From Octopus sinensis (Eukaryota), in contig NW_021834041.1 of NCBI RefSeq assembly GCF_006345805.1, positions 1-27,236 of the forward strand: DNA of 27,236 nt. The letters are read 5' to 3'. The notes beneath the pieces were generated by a model, which saw nothing but the letters and a program-made list of their open reading frames with translations, was not told the DNA's origin and did no database searches. Every line of letters starts with the position of its first letter. Positions within the stretch are counted from its first letter, which is position 1. Of the stretch, positions 2,690 through 27,236 are shown one piece after another. The translations under genes and the position numbers were made by a program.

Positions 2690-3152
2690 AACATGACCTC
2701 CTGGAATCTGTCCAGAGACGTGCAACCAAACGCATACCCTCCATCAGACACCTACCATATTCTGAGCGCCTTGCTTCCCTGGGCATGGATTCAGTGAAGC
2801 TCCGGCGTCTGGCGACGGACTTGGTAAACACCCACAAGTTTATCAACCACCTCACCAACAACAACACTGAACACCTTTTTGATCTCCATGTGTCTAACAC
2901 ACGTGGACATGCCTACAAAGTCAGAAAACAACACAGCTCCCATGACTTTCGGAAACATTTTTTCATGCTCAGAGTTGCTGAAGCATGGAATAAACTGCCT
3001 GCGTCAGTTGTTGACTGCCATGACACTGCATCCTTTAAGGCCCTCATGCTTTCCGAAATCTGCCGAAACTACACCTGATTATATATACACTTTAGATGAG
3101 TTGTAGTGCACCTGAGCACTGTACACAATTATTATTATTATTATTATTATTA
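2690..3152 (+). mobile_element. 5'-truncated CR1/L2-clade LINE: ORF2 C-terminus, 3'UTR and (ATT)n tail
   Basis: Translates LESVQRRATKRIPSIRHLPYSERLASLG...TRGHAYK...FRKHFFMLRVAEAWNKLP, typical of the post-RT C-terminus in this clade. Ends in (ATT)n at ~3128-3152. Confidence 0.85.
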
Positions 3153-6539: not shown

Positions 6540-6661
6540 TTAACTGGCAACAACATCTGGTGTTGAAGGTAACTGTCTCTCTGGAGGTTTCACATATCTG
6601 TCTTGGTAATGGTCTCTCTCACTGGTGCTTGATACATCGGGTGGGGCACCACCATAGATTC
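6540..6661 (-). CDS. Pcdh: Protocadherin A terminal coding exon (GIYGGAPP...RQLPSTPDVVAS*)
   Basis: gtttcag|GA acceptor and TAA at 6542-6540. About 100 nt of downstream 3'UTR also aligns with B and C. Confidence 0.85.
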
Positions 6662-7897
6662 CTGAAACACACATATATATCAAATAAATGTATTGAATAA
6701 GTCACATAGTCAGTAGGTATTTTATGTCAGGGAAAAAAACTGTCAAACCTTTAAAAGAAATTTAGATGTGTTTTAATTGTACAATATATTATGTTGTTTA
6801 CTGATTTTAATTAAATAGTTCTGCTCCATTAGTTTCAAAAAGTATTATAAATCACACCACAATTACCTGTATATTGTGATGAACAACTAATTGTACATAA
6901 TGAAAAACAAGGGACTAATGATGAAAATACTGGACCAGGTTAAAATATATGAAATTAAGAACTTGACAAGGTGAGTAGATATATATCTGAATTTGAAGGA
7001 GATTCATCACAAGGGATAAGTTACAAAACTTAGTGTAAATAATAAATAAATACATAAATAATATATAAATATAGTGTAAATATGAAAATGTAGTATAATA
7101 ATATACAAAGAAATGTCACTCACAACAAAACCCATATCCAAAATATTTTTGTATTCATATAGACAGATTTTATAAAAGTCATTTTATCAATTGTATTTCC
7201 GCATCAGTTTAATAATTTATGTCCCTAACACTTAGCTGAATGGAACAAACACCATATTTTGTAGAAAAAAGTGCAATACCTTTTTAGATTCCTGTAAACT
7301 GTGTACTTATAACTACCAGAATATGAATAAGAATTGAATACTCTTGTAAATGTTCCTAATGTTAGGTTCTTGAAGATATTTTGTGAAATATAAACATAGT
7401 TCAGATCATGTAAATGTTTTCTGTTTTTTTCAGTGTTTAGAGTTAATTCTGGACAATACTGTGATAACCACCTAATGACATTTTATATTATGTAAATTGC
7501 ATTCACAATAACTTTTGAATAGATTACAGCGAGTTGAGCAACAGGATACATGTTTAAGTCAATGACAGTATGTAATATAGGGGAGGTCCTCTATACATCT
7601 TTGCTTTGTACAGGGAGATTTGGTGTGTATGTATAAAGTATTATATTGTCACTTTAAGTATATATTGGTATTTCTAAAAGTTTCCTTACAGCTTTCTATG
7701 TCGTGATTAGTTGATATATTTTAAGGAGAATACATTACATAATGTCACAAAGGCTGTTTCTAAAAAATCATGATTAGAATTCAGGATACGAATTTTATAT
7801 TAATTAACAGATTAAAGAGTTTCATGAGAGTGACTTCAAGAATGAGAGACATGATAATGAAATTAATAACAAATGCAAATGGCTGAGAGTGTTCTAC

Positions 7898-8051
7898 CTG
7901 ACATTGCTGGTATTTCTTCATACTGTCTACTTGACCGCTCACTCCAGCACTGTCCACTGCTCTTACGACTGGCCAGTGTGTCAGTGGGATAGTGAGAAGA
8001 TGGTCTGTTGTCTCCATAAGATGTCACCTCTATTGGTTGACTGTATTTCTG
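7898..8051 (-). CDS. Pcdh: Protocadherin A cytoplasmic exon (154 nt)
   Basis: ttttccag|CAG acceptor and G|gtagaa donor. 51 codons plus 1 nt, in frame. Confidence 0.88.
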
Positions 8052-8688: not shown

Positions 8689-11045
8689 CTTTGTAGACTT
8701 CTGAAGTGTTCTGTTCATCGTTGCTGTCTTCCAGTCTTCAGGATAGTAATGGCTCCTCGAATGACCATATCTGTCTGACATCTCTCCTCGATTACCTGAC
8801 ATCACAGGTACACTGTTGTTACCTTGATAGATCAACTGTCTCATCTCATTGCGGCATTGGTATGCCTGTTTCTCTTCTGCTGTTCTTTCAGATGAGCTAT
8901 TTCTCACATTGTTACATCTCACAATACACAGGGTTATAGAAACCACAATAGCTATAGATACTATCACAGCTGCTACTACAATGATAATCAACAATGTCGC
9001 ATCTATTGTGTTATCACTTGGTAGGTGCACAGCTGTGAACATTGGTGACGTCTTGTTACTAACAGTCAGTGTCAAAGACACACTAGTTGTTGCTGACAGA
9101 ACTGGAGTACCACTGTCTTTCACAACAAACTCAAGCTCATATGATCCAGCATCATTTTGGTAAACTGTGCGAGAGTAAGATAACACACCAGTGAACGAAT
9201 CCAGTTTAAATAACTGTCTCTCGTTACCTGAAACGATTTCATACCTGAGAAAAGCATTCATGTGACTGTCTATATCAGATGCTTTCAGAACTGTGATGTC
9301 GTTCTTACTTTGCGGATGATAGTGGACATTAAGAGTGAAAGGGTCAACACTAGGAAATGTAAAATATGGAGCATTATCATTTCTATCCAATACTTCCACT
9401 TCAACATTCACTGTGTTATTCAGAGATGGGCTTCCATTGTCTTTCACAAAAACCTCAAACTCATAGAAATCTCTGTGTTCTCTGTCTAAAGACTGGTTTG
9501 TTGAAATAAAGCCAGAGTTGATAATCTGGAATGGCAGACGATATTGCTGTTTATTTCTCAGAGAATAAGACAATTCACCTCCCTTACCAATATCTGGGTC
9601 TGTAGCATTGATAAAGCCAATAGGGAAATTAGCTTTGTCATTCTCATAGGTAAGGAACTTGAATGTGTCTTTCGTAAAGTGTGGTTCTACATCATTCACA
9701 TCCAACACTTGGATTGACAGATCTTTATCAGTTTTCAGAGCAGGTAATCCTTTATCTTCACACGACACAGTAAAGTGATAATGTTCCTGTGTCTCTCTGT
9801 CTACTGCTTTCTTTAGAACTATTTTATATTCCTTCGATCCCATTGACTGTAGTTTGAATGTGTCGTCTTTGATATGACAGTTCACCTGTCCATTGTGTCC
9901 AACATCGTTGTCAGTGACCATCACATAAGCAATGAAACTACCAACTTTGATGTCTTCCAGAATGGTAGCTGTGTTGTGATTCTGTGTAGAAATAAAATTC
10001 ACATCAATATTTGGGGGATTGTTGTGTTGGTTGATGACATTTACTATAACCGTTGCTATGGAACTCAGAGGAGGTGTGCCATCATCTCTGGCTTCAATGT
10101 ATATTTTAAAAGACTCTTCTTTATCAATTTCTGAAGATGTAGCTAAATATAATTTCCCAGTATTTTCATCTAAATTAAAATGTCTCTTCACTTTCTCAGT
10201 AGTTTTCCTGGCAAAGTAATATGATATTTTACCATTCCTGCCAATATCTAAATCATTGGCTAATAATGTGACTACTGGAATATTCTTTTTATGTTTATGT
10301 TCAATAGAGACATTGTAGATACTTTGAGAAAATTGTGGTGCATTATCATTTTCATCTTCCACAGATATTTTCACATTTAAAACAGATTGTTTTGGTGGGT
10401 TCCTCCATCTTTAGCAATGACTTCAATATCATAATTGTCCTTCTTTTCTCTGTCTAATTTCTCTTCTAAAATAATTCTTAACGTTGATATTTCATCAGTT
10501 TGTTTAGAAACTGATAAAGAAAAATGTCCATTATCTTTTTTTAATTCATAAGTAATTAAGTTGTTTTCTGGACTCATATCTTTGTCAATAGCATTAGGTA
10601 TGGGTTTCTTCATACCTTTACCATCTCCTTCCCTAAAATGTAGAGTAATTTCTTTCTGAGTAAACTCAGGTTGGTGGTCATTGATGTCTTCTATTATGAC
10701 TTTAATCTTTAAGATCTTCATAAATGTCTTGGATTTGTGAACAGCAACTTTAACGATTTCAAAACATTCTTTCTCATAACTACACACAGACTCAGCATCC
10801 AATGTCTCAACAGTGTACAGTTTACCTGTTCTCGTCACATTGAACAACTGTTCTCCCTTTTGTTGCAGTTGACTAAATGTAATTAAATCCTTATTCTTTA
10901 AGAAGGAGCTGTCTGATTTCTGTAAGTCAGTAGCAATGTCCCCTACATAGGTGTAGGGACTATTCTCTTCTTCAACATGGTATGTGATATCTTCACTTAG
11001 ATAACAGTGGAAGAAAGTCAGTAAAACACAGAGAAATAGCAACAT
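8689..11045 (-). CDS. Pcdh: Protocadherin paralogue A, large exon (signal peptide, EC1-EC6, TM, proximal tail) with one 1-nt frameshift at ~10398
   Basis: ORFs 10377-11153 and 8662-10374 join across ggtgggtt, where gene B has ggtggagtt. ATG at 11045 (MLLFLCVLLTFFHCYLS). Acceptor ttgtttcag| with exon start 11101, donor AAG|GTAAGC at 8689/8688. Confidence 0.92.
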
Positions 11046-14736: not shown

Positions 14737-14858
14737 TTAACTGACAACAACATCTGGTGTTGAAGGTAACTGTCTCTCTGGAGGTTTCACATATCTGTCG
14801 TGGTAATGGTCTCTCTCACTGGTGCTTGATACATCAGGTGGGGCACCACCATAGATTC
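14737..14858 (-). CDS. Pcdh: Protocadherin B terminal coding exon (122 nt including TAA)
   Basis: gtttcag|GA acceptor. Translates GIYGGAPP...RQLPSTPDVVVS*. Confidence 0.85.
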
Positions 14859-15196: not shown

Positions 15197-15350
15197 CTGA
15201 CATTGCTGGTATTTCTTCATACTGTCTGCTTGACCGCTCACTCCAGCACTGTCCACTGCTCTTACGACTGGCCAGTGTGTCAGTGGGATAGTGAGAAGAT
15301 GGTCTGTTGTCTCCATAAGATGTCACCTCAATGGGTTGACTGTATTTCTG
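15197..15350 (-). CDS. Pcdh: Protocadherin B cytoplasmic exon (154 nt)
   Basis: ctaacag|CAG acceptor and G|gtaaaa donor. Near-identical to the A and C copies. Confidence 0.88.
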
Positions 15351-17007: not shown

Positions 17008-19351
17008 CTTTGTAGACTTCTGAAGTGATCTGCTCATTGTTGATGTCTTCCAGTCTTCAGGATAGTAATGGCTCCTCGAATGACCATATCTCTCTGACAT
17101 CTCTCCTCGATTACCTGACATCACAGGTACACTGTTGTTACCTTGATAGATCAACTGTCTCATCTCATTGCGACATTGGTATGCCTGTTTCTCTTCTGCT
17201 GTTCTTTCAGATGAGCTATTTCTCATATTGTTACATCTCACAATACACAGTGTTATAGAAACCACAATAGCTATAGATACTATCACAGCTGCTACTACAA
17301 TGATAATCAACAATGTTGCATCTATTGTGTTATCACTTGGTAGGTGCACAGCTGTGAACATTGGTGACGTCTTGTTACTAACAGTCAGTGTCAAAGACAC
17401 ACTAGTTGTTGCTGACAGAACTGGAGTACCACTGTCTTTCACAACAAACTCAAGCTCATATGATCCGGCATCATTTTGGTAAACTGTGCGAGAGTAAGAT
17501 AACACACCAGTGAACGAGTCCAGTTTAAATAACTGTCTCTCGTTACCTGAAACGATTTCATACCTGAGAAAAGCATTCATGTGACTGTCTATATCAGATG
17601 CTTTCAGAACTGTGATGTCGTTCTTGCTTTGCGGATGATAGTGGACATTAAGAGTGAAAGGGTCAACACTAGGAAATGTAAAATATGGAGCATTATCATT
17701 TCTATCCAATACTTCCACTTCAACATTCACTGTGTATTCAGAGATGGGCTTCCATTGTCTTTCACAAAAACCTCAAACTCATAGAAATCTCTGTGTTCTC
17801 TGTCTAAAGACTGGTTTGTTGAAATAAAGCCAGAGTTGATAATCTGGAATGGCAGACGATATTGCTGTTTATTTCTCAGAGAATAAGACAATTCACCTCC
17901 CTTACCAATATCTGGGTCTGTAGCATTGATAAAGCCAATAGGGAAATTAGCTTTGTCATTCTCATAGGTAAGGAACTTGAATGTGTTTCGTAAAGTGTGG
18001 TTCTACATCATTCACATCCAACACTTGGATTGACAGATCTTTATCAGTTTTCAGAGCAGGTAATCCTTTATCTTCACACGACACAGTAAAGTGATAATGT
18101 TCCTGTGTCTCTCTGTCTACTGCTTTCTTTAGAACTATTTTATATTCCTTCGATCCCATTGACTGTAGGTTGAATGTGTCATCTTTGATATGACAGTTCA
18201 CCTCTCCATTGTGTCCAACATCATTGTCAGTGACCATCACATAAGCAATGAAACTACCAACTTTGATGTCTTCCAGAATGTGGCTGTGTTGTGATTCTGT
18301 GTAGAAATAAAGTTCACATCAATATTTGGAGGATTGTTGTGTTCATTGATGACATTTATTGAACGATTGCCAGAGAACTGAGAGGGGAAATACCATTATC
18401 CCTGGCTCCAATATAATTTAAAATTCTTCTTTCCAAACTCTATTGATTTAGCTAAATATACACTCCTGTATTTTCATTCAAATGAAAATATTTTCTCATC
18501 TTCACATCAGTTTTCTGACTGAAATAGAAAGATATTTTACCATTCCTGCCAATATCTAAATCACTGGCAGATAATGTGACAACTGGAATATTCTTTTTAT
18601 GTTTATGTTCAATAGAGACATTGTAGATACTTTGGGAAAATTGTGGTTTATTATCATTTTCATCTTCCACAGATATTTTCACATTTAAAACAGATTGTTT
18701 TGGTGGAGTTCCCCCATCTTTAGCAATGACCTCAATATTGTAGCTGTCCTTCTTTTCTCTATCTAATTTATCTTCTAAAATAATTTCTAATGTTGATATT
18801 TCATCAGCTATTTTTGATTGGGATAAGGAAAAATGTCCATCACCATGTAATACATATTTGATTAAACTGTTCTGATTACCCATATCTTTATCAATGGCAT
18901 TAGGTATCATCTTTTTCATACCTTTACCATCACCTTCACCAAAGATCAGTGTAATTTCTTTCTGAGGAAACTTAGGCTGGTGGTCATTGATGTCTTCTAT
19001 TATGACTTTAATCTTTAAGATCTTCATAAATGTCTTCGATTTGTGAACAGCAACTTTAACGATTTCAAAACATTCTTTCTCATAACTACACACAGACTCA
19101 GCATCCAATGTCTCAACAGTGTACAGTTTACCTGTTCTCGTCACATTGAACAACTGTTCTCCCTTTTGTTGCAGTTGACTAAATGTAATTAAATCCTTAT
19201 TCTTTAAGAAGGAGCTATCTGATTTCTGTAGGTCAGTAGCTATGTCCCCTATATATGTATAGGGACTATTCTCTTCTTCAACATGATATGTGATATCTTC
19301 ACTTGAATAACAATGAGAAAATGTCAATAAAATACAGAGACACAACAGCAT
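17008..19351 (-). CDS. Pcdh: Protocadherin paralogue B, large exon (EC1-EC6, TM, proximal tail); several frameshifts as assembled (pseudogene or sequence error)
   Basis: ORF fragments 18452-19387, 17962-18240 and 16948-17730 are collinear with gene C. Signal-peptide ATG at 19351 (MLLCLCILLTFSHCYS). Acceptor ttttacag| with exon start 19396, donor AAG|GTAAGA at 17008/17007. Small deletions at ~17735, ~17987, ~18280, ~18360 and 18400-18470. Confidence 0.88.
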
Positions 19352-23084: not shown

Positions 23085-23206
23085 TTAACTGACAACAACA
23101 TCTGGTGTTGAAGGTAACTGTCTCTCTGGAGGTTTCACATATCTGTCTTGGTAATGGTCTCTCTCACTGGTGCTTGATACATCGGGTGGGGCACCACCAT
23201 AGATTC
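23085..23206 (-). CDS. Pcdh: Protocadherin C terminal coding exon (GIYGGAPPDVSSTSERDHYQDRYVKPPERQLPSTPDVVVS*)
   Basis: gtttcag|GA acceptor completes the phase-1 Gly codon. TAA at 23087-23085. Conserved in three copies. Confidence 0.85.
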
Positions 23207-23505: not shown

Positions 23506-23659
23506 CTGACATTGCAGGTATTTCTTCATACTGTCTACTTGACCGCTCACTCCAGCACTGTCCACTGCTCTTACGACTGGTCAATGTGTCAGTGGGATAG
23601 TGAGAAGATGGTCTGTTGTCTCCATAAGATGTCACCTCAATGGGTTGACTGTATTTCTG
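23506..23659 (-). CDS. Pcdh: Protocadherin C cytoplasmic exon (154 nt; QKYSQPIEVTSYGDNRPSSH...QYEEIPAMS)
   Basis: ttttacag|CAG acceptor and G|gtaaaa donor. Open in phase with the upstream exon and conserved in all three paralogues. Confidence 0.88.
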
Positions 23660-24893: not shown

Positions 24894-27236
24894 CTTTGTG
24901 GACTTTTGAAGACTTCTGCTCATTGTCGATGTCTTCCAGTCTTCAGGATAGTAATGGCTCCTCGAATGACCATATCTCTCTGACATCTCTCCTCGATTAC
25001 CTGACATCACAGGTACACTGTTGTTACCTTGATAGATCAACTGTCTCATCTCATTGCGACATTGGTATGCCTGTTTCTCTTCTGCAGTTCTTTCAGATGA
25101 GCTATTTCTCACATTGTTACATCTCACAATACACAGGGTTATAGAAACCACAATAGCTATAGATACTATCACAGCTGCTACTACAATGATAATCAACAAT
25201 GTCGCATCTATTGTATTATCACTTGGTAGGTGCACAGCTGTGAACATTGGTGACGTCTTGTTACTAACAGTCAGTGTCAAAGACACACTAGTTGTTGCTG
25301 ACAGAACTGGAGTACCACTGTCTTTCACAACAAACTCAAGCTCATATGATCCGGCATCGTTTTGGTAAACTGTGCGAGAGTATGATAACACACCAGTGAA
25401 AGAGTCCAGTTTAAATAACTGTCTCTCGTTACCTGAAACGATTTCATACCTGAGAAAAGCATTCATGTGACTGTCTATATCAGATGCTTTCAGAACTGTG
25501 ATGTCGTTCTTACTTTGCGGATGATAGTGGACATTAAGAGTGAAAGGGTCAACACTAGGAAATGTAAAATATGGAGCATTATCATTTCTATCCAATACTT
25601 CCACTTCAACATTCACTGTGTTATTCAGAGATGGGCTTCCATTGTCTTTCACAAAAACCTCAAACTCATAGAAATCTCTGTGTTCTCTGTCTAAAGACTG
25701 GTTTGTTGAAATAAAGCCAGAGTTGATAATCTGGAATGGCAGACGATATTGCTGTTTATTTCTCAGAGAATAAGACAATTCACCTCCCTTACCAATATCT
25801 GGGTCTGTAGCATTGATAAAGCCAATAGGGAAATTAGCTTTGTCATTCTCATAGGTAAGGAACTTGAATGTGTCTTTCGTAAAGTGTGGTTCGACATCAT
25901 TCACATCCAACACCTGGATTGACAGATCTTTATCAGTTTTCAGAGCAGGTAATCCTTTATCTTCACACGACACAGTAAAGTGATAATGTTCCTGTGTCTC
26001 TCTGTCTACTGCTTTCTTTAGAACTATTTTATATTCCTTCGATCCCATTGACTGTAGTTTGAATGTGTCGTCTTTGATATGACAGTTCACCTGTCCATTG
26101 TGTCCAACATCATTGTCAGTGACCATCACATAAGCAATGAAACTACCAACTTTGATGTCTTCCAGAATGGTAGCTGTGTTGTGATTCTGAGTAGAAATAA
26201 AATTCACATCAATATTTGGAGGATTGTTGTGTTGGTTGATAACATTTATCTGAATTATTGCAATGGAACTGAGAGGAGGAATTCCATTATCTTTGGCTTT
26301 CACATATAATTTAAATGATTCTTTCTTACCAAAATTTATAGGTTTTTCAAGAAATAACTTTCCAGTACTTTTATCTAAATGAAAGTATTCTTTTATCGTT
26401 TCATCAGTTTTCTGACTGAAATAGAAAGATATTTTACCATTCCTGTCAATATCTAAATCACTGGCAGATAATGTGACGACTGGAATATTCTTTTTATGTT
26501 TATGTTCTATAGAGACATTGTAGATACTTTGAGAAAATTGCGGTTTATTATCATTTTCATCTTTTACAGATATTTTCACATTTAGCACAGACTGCTTTGG
26601 TGGACTTCCCCCATCTTTACCAATAACCTCAATATTGTAGTTGTCTTTCTTTTCTCTGTCTAATTTATTTTCTAAAATAATTTCTAAAGTGGAAATTCCA
26701 TCTGCTTCTTTAGAAACACTTAATGAAAAATAGTTACCTCCACCATTTAAGTCATAATTAATTAAGCTGTTTTGGTAACCTTTATCTTTGTCGATGGCAT
26801 TAGGTATGGTTTTCTTCATACCTTTACCATCTCCTTCTCTGAAATGTAGTGTGATTTCTTTCTCAGGAAACTCAGGTTGGTGGTCATTGATGTCTTCTAT
26901 TATGACTTTAATCTTTAAGATCTTCATAAATGTCTTGGATTTGTGAACAGCCACTTTAACGATTTCAAAACATTCTTTCTCATAACTACACACAGACTCA
27001 GCATCCAATGTCTCAACAGTGTACAGTTTACCTGTTCTCGTCACATTGAACAACTGTTCTCCCTTTTGTTGCAGTTGACTAAATGTAATTAAATCCTTAT
27101 TCTTTAAGAAGGAGCTGTCTGATTTCTGTAAGTCAGTAGCAATGTCCCCTACATAGGTATAGGGACTCTTCTCTTCTTCAATATGATATGTGATATCTTC
27201 ACTTGAATAACAATGAGAAAAAGTCAATAAAATACA
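24894..27236 (-). CDS. Pcdh: Protocadherin paralogue C, large exon (signal peptide cut by window edge, EC1-EC6, TM, proximal cytoplasmic tail); reading frame intact
   Basis: 792-aa ORF with six cadherin repeats (DINDHQP, DENDNKP, DVNDVEP, DRNDNAP linkers; LDRE motifs), EC1 Cys-X5-Cys (CSYEKEC) and TM LLIIIVVAAVIVSIAIVVSITLCIV. Phase-0 donor AAG|GTAAGT at 24894/24893. By comparison with gene B the start codon lies just beyond 27236. Confidence 0.95.

Follow-up and report, generated by a model that had tools for sequence, protein, structure and literature searches.

What do the cytoplasmic tails of octopus protocadherins connect to inside the cell? The available sections of one study describe the intracellular partners of cephalopod protocadherins as unexplored (PMC6339937), and those of another state that cephalopods diversify these proteins via whole-gene duplication and gene conversion, not via shared constant exons (Albertin 2022, PMC9068888). 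The question is raised here by a stretch of 27,236 nucleotides of Octopus sinensis DNA (the window). A first-pass annotation proposed that the tails encoded there carry a Src-type SH2 ligand (QYEEIP) and a class I SH3 ligand (RQLPSTP), which together act as a constant signalling domain.

The window contains three protocadherin genes, copies A, B and C, arranged in tandem head-to-tail and all on the minus strand. Copy A spans 11045-6540 and copy B 19351-14737, while copy C runs from 27236, where the window edge truncates it, to 23085. Each gene consists of one large exon, encoding six cadherin repeats (by Pfam), the transmembrane (TM) segment and the start of the tail, and two small exons. Exon 1 of copy A (8689..11045) also encodes the signal peptide; it was located by tblastn of P0001, with six Pfam Cadherin matches in P0006, and its TM segment (8920..8994) by translation and hydropathy. 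Exon 2 lies at 7898..8051, as defined by contig joints and GT..AG ends, and the coding part of exon 3, up to the stop codon, at 6540..6661, as defined by contig joints and exon comparison. The corresponding exons are 17008..19351, 15197..15350 and 14737..14858 in copy B, and 24894..27236, 23506..23659 and 23085..23206 in copy C. Exon 1 was placed by tblastn in both, together with an indel map in B and translation in C, and the small exons by sequence comparison and GT..AG ends. The first exon of copy C is a single ORF that stays open as far as the window end. Exons 2 and 3 are separate in every copy, and no constant exons are held in common. Elsewhere in the window, a 128-codon frame on the plus strand (2692-3078) resembles the terminal part of a LINE reverse-transcriptase ORF; Pfam gives it no support.

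Among the best 120 of 2121 matches, the nearest named relatives are protocadherins of Octopus sinensis, O. vulgaris, O. bimaculoides and Argonauta hians. The copy A tail is identical, in every letter, to that of the O. sinensis RefSeq protein P0006. Copies A, B and C are members of the coleoid tandem-array protocadherins, and not delta- or vertebrate clustered protocadherins. As that group is described in the available parts of PMC9068888 and PMC6339937, they share with it full multi-exon genes lying head-to-tail, a single large exon for the six repeats and TM, gene conversion as the means of homogenisation, and the absence of the vertebrate CM1-3 motifs. They differ from the published description in their tail motifs. 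Styfhals Table S2 (after Albertin 2015), as far as it was available, gives only EC1, EC5, EC6, TM and PP1 as octopus motifs, with neither YEE[IL]P nor a class I proline motif (PMC6339937). The available text of Styfhals 2019 reports no CM1-3 motifs and cites Wang and Ragsdale for the lack of vertebrate intracellular motifs (PMC6339937); the accessible portions of the reviews PMC7339444 and PMC10084454 give no information on cephalopod tails. A literature search found no description of the motifs discussed here, although Albertin 2015, Wang and Ragsdale 2017 and the supplement of Albertin 2022 may note YEE.

Joining the exons of each copy at GT..AG sites produces one open segment of 179 codons, comprising the end of the TM segment and the tail. 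Evidence for this splicing can be found in transcript-like contigs of four runs from four studies, whose 'RNA?' label was guessed and is supported by the joints themselves. The exon 2/3 joint, 6660|7897 (cut +1, CT..AC), occurs in all four runs, and the exon 1/2 joint at 8048|8689 in three and at 8051|8689 in one. Contig depth is almost confined to the exons, with hardly any intron cover. Because the contigs may derive from near-identical paralogs or sister species, the splicing they document is that of the subfamily, not of copy A itself; at this level the small exons are joined in the frame that the first-pass annotation had given. The acceptor of exon 2 is of the NAGNAG type in A (8051 or 8048), B (15350) and C (23659), and the choice made there yields a tail with or without one Gln, both of which are seen in the contigs. 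A further joint, 6605|7897, found in all four runs, was considered as alternative splicing and rejected: its ends are not GT..AG, and it is explained instead by a P0030-like paralog that has a different linker and whose stop region shows up as loose ends at 6553. Run X1 contains a low-depth contig over 7448-7699, in intron 2 of copy A, with five differences; it may represent pre-mRNA, DNA or a repeat.

Both motifs are present on the minus strand of all three copies, as the first-pass annotation had it. QYEEIP, a predicted phosphotyrosine ligand for SH2 domains, occupies 7908..7925 in copy A (Tyr codon 7922-7920), within RQYEEIPAM at 7928-7902, for which the first-pass annotation gave the narrower 7925-7908; its YEEI core lies at 7922-7911 in A, 15221-15210 in B and 23530-23519 in C. 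RQLPSTP, a predicted class I SH3 ligand, is found at 6558..6578 in A, 14775-14755 in B and 23123-23103 in C. The tyrosine is N-terminal, 36 residues from the Arg of RQLPSTP, and for the polar linker of 32 residues a chain formula gives an rms span of about 31 A. Some 120 residues separate YEEI from the membrane, and composition suggests that the tail is disordered. Two YxxP motifs accompany the pair: YSQP (8034..8045), a possible secondary phosphosite with Tyr in 20 of 42 rows, and YVKP (6585..6596). A conserved Trp (7944..7946), eight residues N-terminal of the tyrosine, is present in 26 of 42 occupied rows. The sole S/T-P of the tail is the Thr-Pro within RQLPSTP, which could regulate the SH3 site.

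Delta-protocadherins carry CM1/CM2 (and CM3, RVxF). The first-pass annotation did not recognise CM1/CM2 or WIRS, and no WIRS, RVxF or CM1/CM2-type pattern was found in the tails of A, B and C. WIRS is defined as Phi-x-T/S-F (PMC8209697), and in its strict form it is not enriched among relatives (3/48, against 6.7 in shuffles). Pfam finds no Cadherin_C_2 or Cadherin_tail match in the window genes. Other features of the tail can be noted. A juxtamembrane Cys (8928-8926 and following), kept in 40 of 41 rows, is a possible palmitoylation site, and a dileucine-like EMRQLI stands further along. The string SSGQCWS (7958-7938) belongs to a DSGxGWSE-like element about eight residues before the tyrosine, common to octopod and decapodiform tails, which may recall delta-protocadherin CM1 or a phosphodegron; DSGxG itself occurs in 3 of 48 relatives.

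The invariance of the motifs among the three copies is real but says little, because the copies are near-identical even at silent sites. Across the three, identity in exons 2 and 3 is 97-99%, a figure that covers silent sites and some 100 bases of 3' UTR, and 13-15 of the 179 codons differ between copies, 7-10 of these silently. The introns do not align. Exon 1 shows identities of 0.97-1.0 across most of its 3' half, against 0.70-0.81 in its EC2 and EC3 windows. These variable windows lie at 10664-10465 and 10265-10066 in copy A and in the matching parts of B and C (70-81% identical), whereas the exons from EC4 to the tail are 94-100% identical, so that the recognition domains vary above a homogenised base. 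This pattern may be the product of exon-limited gene conversion, which it fits. Seven frameshifting indels, every one a deletion, interrupt exon 1, at 10399 in A (a single nucleotide) and at 18460, 18411, 18360, 18280, 17986 and 17735 in B. Contigs from three of the four runs have one extra base at the copy A break, and an error of assembly in a small contig is probably a likelier cause of the frameshifts than pseudogenes.

More can be learned from divergent relatives. The octopod set comprised 124 proteins: 118 of the 120 listed relatives, which as the best 120 of 2121 matches are biased toward close ones, and six from a 50% representative search. One without a clear TM segment was dropped, and the other 123 tails formed 48 clusters at less than 50% identity. 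YEEI occurs in 20 of the 48 clusters, and YE[ED][ILV] in 29, compared with a mean of 0.28 and a maximum of 3 in 500 shuffles. In the tyrosine column, the 44 occupied rows comprise 37 Y, 3 C, 3 K and 1 H; four further rows have a gap, and none has Phe or Trp. At +1 there is Glu in 37 of the 44 rows and Asp in one; at +2, Glu in 34 and Thr in four; at +3, Ile (20), Leu (18) or Val (4), 42 in all; and at +4, Pro in 31 of 43. From Y to +3 the tails have a pairwise identity of 0.74, compared with 0.24 over their full length and 0.20 over the 45 residues that precede the motif. After the juxtamembrane Cys, Y and E are the best-kept columns of the tail, and no other Tyr column exceeds 24 rows. The invariant tyrosine of alignment A3, which was built from Tyr-bearing rows, is excluded as evidence.

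The conservation of the Tyr motif among relatives is due to shared ancestry and selection, which do not name the partner. Outside the group, neither motif was found in the 56 usable tails among 140 other cadherins, and the octopod tail profile matched none of 142 non-cephalopod cadherins at E<0.01. The 50% representative search returned mostly giant cadherins and, besides the six new octopod members, no usable gastropod, bivalve or nautilus tail; a bivalve model (P0259) has an unrelated tail. Look-alike searches of the atlas scored 0.82 or less, within chance.

The SH3 ligand has a narrower distribution. A class I pattern, [RK]xLPxxP, is found in 14 of the 48 clusters, always within the last 60 residues (shuffles: mean 0.07, maximum 2). 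This count is probably a lower bound, as the ligand may be missing from some tails because the isoform is short or the gene model imperfect. The two motifs coincide in 8 clusters, or in 10 if Thr is permitted at +2; on the latter count the Tyr motif is found in 33 clusters, the class I ligand in 14 and both in 10, at spacings of 36 to 114 residues. The constant signalling domain of the first-pass annotation thus applies to the window's subfamily, but both motifs are joined in just 8-10 of 48 clusters and the genes share no constant exons. A Y-x-[KR]-P sequence precedes the ligand in 11 of the 14 clusters that have one.

A search for homologs of the tail alone returned 37 proteins, all from one octopod subfamily. 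Its sample consists of 35 tails from Octopus and Argonauta, with P0029 (unrelated tail) and P0005 (no TM) excluded. All 35 keep YEEIP; 32 also keep the class I pattern, and the other three have lost the SH3 ligand. Variation is limited to the x positions of RxLPxxP and to the sequence and length of the linker. RQLPSTP itself is restricted to this young subfamily.

In a quick tree of 65 EC4-TM rows, whose deep branches are weak, proteins that end in the ligand fall into two octopod clades, separated by lineages that have the tyrosine only. One is the window subfamily, and the other a long-tail clade with KPLPxxP (SH-aLRT 97). Since the deep branches are weak, gain and loss of the ligand are indistinguishable. 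Lys replaces Arg in 12 of the 13 long-tail ligands. RQLPSTP lies four residues further past the shared Y-x-[KR]-P anchor than the long-tail ligand does, an offset which suggests that the ligand may have been rebuilt through a short insertion. The last 30 residues of long-tail proteins (P0119, P0098, P0102) also contain a conserved block, W-N-L-P-x-R-N-S-F-T-S-Y-S-K, just before KPLPxxP. A pattern F.[STAC][YFL].[KR]P is found in 13 of 48 clusters; it is WIRS-like with Tyr in place of Phe and does not match the strict consensus.

By sequence and conservation, then, the tail has both an SH2 ligand of the pY-E-E-I type and a class I RxLPxxP. We consider it somewhat more probable than otherwise that YEEIP and the terminal RQLPSTP form a two-site dock for Src-family kinases, similar to that of FAK and p130Cas in reversed order, with binding to both sites predicted. 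In the available text of PMC4140816, pYEEI is a high-affinity ligand of Src-family SH2 domains, stronger than the kinase's natural tail; FAK activates Src by tandem SH3 and SH2 docking; and the Src SH3 domain uses an Arg in its ligand. QYEEIP is the core of EPQpYEEIPIYL, a peptide used as a Src activator according to the part of PMC9768919 that was available. The Src SH3 site of FAK is given in available text as QKEGERALPSIPK, residues 363-375, acting with Tyr397 (PMC6528292), and ERQLPSTP matches ERALPSIP of FAK at 6 of 8 positions. p130Cas, in the sections available, combines RPLPSPP with YxxP substrate sites, through which Crk and Nck are recruited (PMC2956669).

Under the Src-dock reading, RQLPSTP would tether the kinase weakly through its SH3 domain. 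Clustering driven by adhesion would then bring about phosphorylation of the YEEI tyrosine, and the SH2 domain would bind pYEEI, push out the kinase's own inhibitory tail and lock the kinase open. The active kinase would phosphorylate the neighbouring YxxP sites (YSQP and YVKP), which would recruit adaptors of the Crk/Nck type and lead to actin remodelling. Paralogs with the Tyr motif alone would be weaker docks, used for phosphorylation only.

The tail likely works like the Src-binding regions of FAK and p130Cas without being a member of that class. The FAK region (RALPSIP and pTyr397) has the same kind of class I site, an SH2 tyrosine about 30 residues off and tandem Src docking. FAK, however, is a cytosolic kinase in which the SH3 site comes first, whereas the octopus protein is a TM adhesion protein with its tyrosine first, no homology to FAK and no built-in priming kinase. 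p130Cas (RPLPSPP and a YxxP domain) undergoes Src SH3/SH2 docking followed by YxxP phosphorylation, a sequence of events predicted for the octopus tail, and its proline site resembles the RKLPSPP of an Argonauta paralog (P0033). It is an adaptor with fifteen YxxP motifs, and the octopus protein a receptor with two; its SH3 and SH2 sites, too, stand in the order opposite to that of the octopus tail.

Several points count against a Src partner: the motif order opposite to that of FAK, the Lys of long-tail ligands, the frequent uncoupling of the motifs, and an SH3 ligand that is not family-wide. Src kinases favour an aliphatic residue before Tyr. The residue found there is mostly His or Gln, which are non-aliphatic, so another kinase may prime the site. 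Conservation across the 48 octopod clusters considerably strengthens the Src-type reading of the first-pass annotation, which is upheld in part, while the identity of the partner is suggested by resemblance to known ligands.

The same uncoupling (33, 14 and 10 of 48), the spacing of 36-114 residues and the Lys-for-Arg exchange would also fit motifs that serve other or separate partners, such as Tec/Btk, Fer, Abl, Shark/Syk or Nck/Dock, and several SH2 families accept pY-acidic-acidic-hydrophobic. We regard this as possible, though on the unlikely side. Nck SH2 prefers Asp at +1, which is seen in 1 of 44 rows; the window tails contain no class II PxxPxR, NPxY or YxN; and an exact pYEEIP combined with a FAK-like proline site indicates Src-family domains.

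YEEI also satisfies the YxxPhi sorting consensus. It could be an endocytic or lysosomal signal for the mu subunits of AP complexes, with the proline motif binding an endocytic SH3 protein; it is the sole YxxPhi in the tail, stands beside EMRQLI and keeps its tyrosine strictly, as such signals require. In sorting signals, Tyr and Phi are fixed and the two middle positions free. Here Glu fills the first of these in 37 and the second in 34 of 44 rows, Pro follows at +4 in 31 of 43, and the motif is about 120 residues off the membrane, all of which make a sorting signal improbable.

Alternately, YEE[IL] fits the Tyr type of LC3/Atg8-interacting motif ([WFY]xx[LIV], with acidic middle residues), which would route protocadherins to autophagic or endolysosomal membranes. 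The aromatic position of such motifs exchanges among W, F and Y, with Phe and Trp equal to Tyr or better, so 37 Y, 0 F and 0 W in 44 rows, together with an upstream acidic run that is not conserved, make this reading very unlikely. Finally, that the motifs are chance look-alikes carried in recent duplicates, as the near-identical tail exons of A, B and C, the frameshifts in A and B and the confinement of RQLPSTP to one young subfamily might suggest, is highly improbable and for YEEI largely refuted, given that Y and E are the top conserved columns after the juxtamembrane Cys in tails of about 24% identity and that the subfamily varies only at the x positions of RxLPxxP and in the linker.

How far does the putative Src dock extend among cephalopods? 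The first-pass annotation had named motif conservation in divergent cephalopods as a check, and the answer is divided: the tyrosine is kept in 37 of 44 octopod rows, but YE[EDT][ILV] occurs in none of 120 decapodiform-side proteins, of which about 13 include a homologous second exon. The named members of this set are from the cuttlefish Acanthosepion pharaonis, so it represents one clade and is not a census. The tails are homologous, as the octopod profile, at E<0.01, detects 77 of the 167 decapodiform-side sequences, and two have a decayed motif (HSEEVP and PCEKVL). Nine proteins (P0313, P0337, P0341, P0342, P0350, P0363, P0380, P0392 and P0411) have Y[QR]E[IV] spanning the exon 1/2 junction, a possible replacement SH2 site, and [IVF]YQ is seen in 39 of the 120 tails. 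P0304 terminates in RPLPPLP, a class I ligand. It belongs to the P0105 cluster (P0299, P0302, P0303, P0304), which appears to represent one gene with several alternative last exons; since only one of these has the ligand, splicing may toggle the SH3 site. Cuttlefish P0321 has a protocadherin tail of 500 residues with repeated DY[LV]EP, similar to the p130Cas substrate domain.

The docking tyrosine may also be subject to RNA editing. The O. vulgaris protein P0079 (QBA31128.1), a transcript-type record and one of the three Cys rows of the Tyr column, has Cys in place of the motif's Tyr843, its sole difference from the genome-derived P0429 over 852 residues. Its genomic versions encode Tyr, which is also found in the O. 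bimaculoides and Argonauta orthologs; residue 843 is homologous to window 7922-7920. The P0079 sequence matches a transcriptome-derived row in the available part of the Styfhals supplement. The change requires a single A>G, as do 15 of 150 single-base amino-acid changes. Tyr843Cys is thus a candidate for A-to-I recoding, noticed post hoc in one record, with a private allele or an assembly error as the alternative; in two other paralogs Cys is genomically encoded.

In two further transcript/genome pairs nothing points to editing of the motif: P0281 has one difference, not A>G, and the P0227 pair has nine, two of them A>G-compatible. In run X2, the main contig covering 7897-8030 carries at least two differences, and none of those listed falls on the Tyr codon; the predominant form in the window subfamily is thus unedited at this site, with the proviso that contigs tend to drop rare variants. 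The accessible part of Shoshan 2021 (PMC8382921) does not mention protocadherins or the tyrosine.

A bolder proposal, which we hold to be doubtful, is that octopods evolved a protocadherin code of their own, made up of a family-wide tyrosine for Src SH2 domains, a modular SH3 ligand in the last exon and Tyr-to-Cys A-to-I editing in some paralogs. If so, separate clades would each have acquired or rebuilt the SH3 ligand, and RNA editing could let a neuron toggle a given protocadherin between combined adhesion and signalling and adhesion alone.

Vertebrate clustered alpha and gamma protocadherins likewise combine a variable ectodomain with a near-constant tail. Fyn binds CNR/alpha protocadherin. 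Vertebrates, however, obtain the constant tail from shared spliced exons, whereas octopuses have separate exons that are kept alike. The vertebrate tails engage Pyk2 and FAK, and, by a cited title, Ret; in the available sections they are described as inhibiting Pyk2/FAK, and not as presenting Src ligands (PMC7339444).

The cephalopod expansion of protocadherins is independent of that in vertebrates, and a conserved Src-type dock, as predicted here, would name a class of partner for its tails. If true, it would mean convergence on tyrosine-kinase signalling via a borrowed design like that of FAK and Cas. It would also explain why the tails are homogenised alongside divergence of EC2 and EC3, and would give RNA recoding a site with a clear on/off biochemical meaning. 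Adhesion proteins that wire the brain would thereby gain a testable signalling route.
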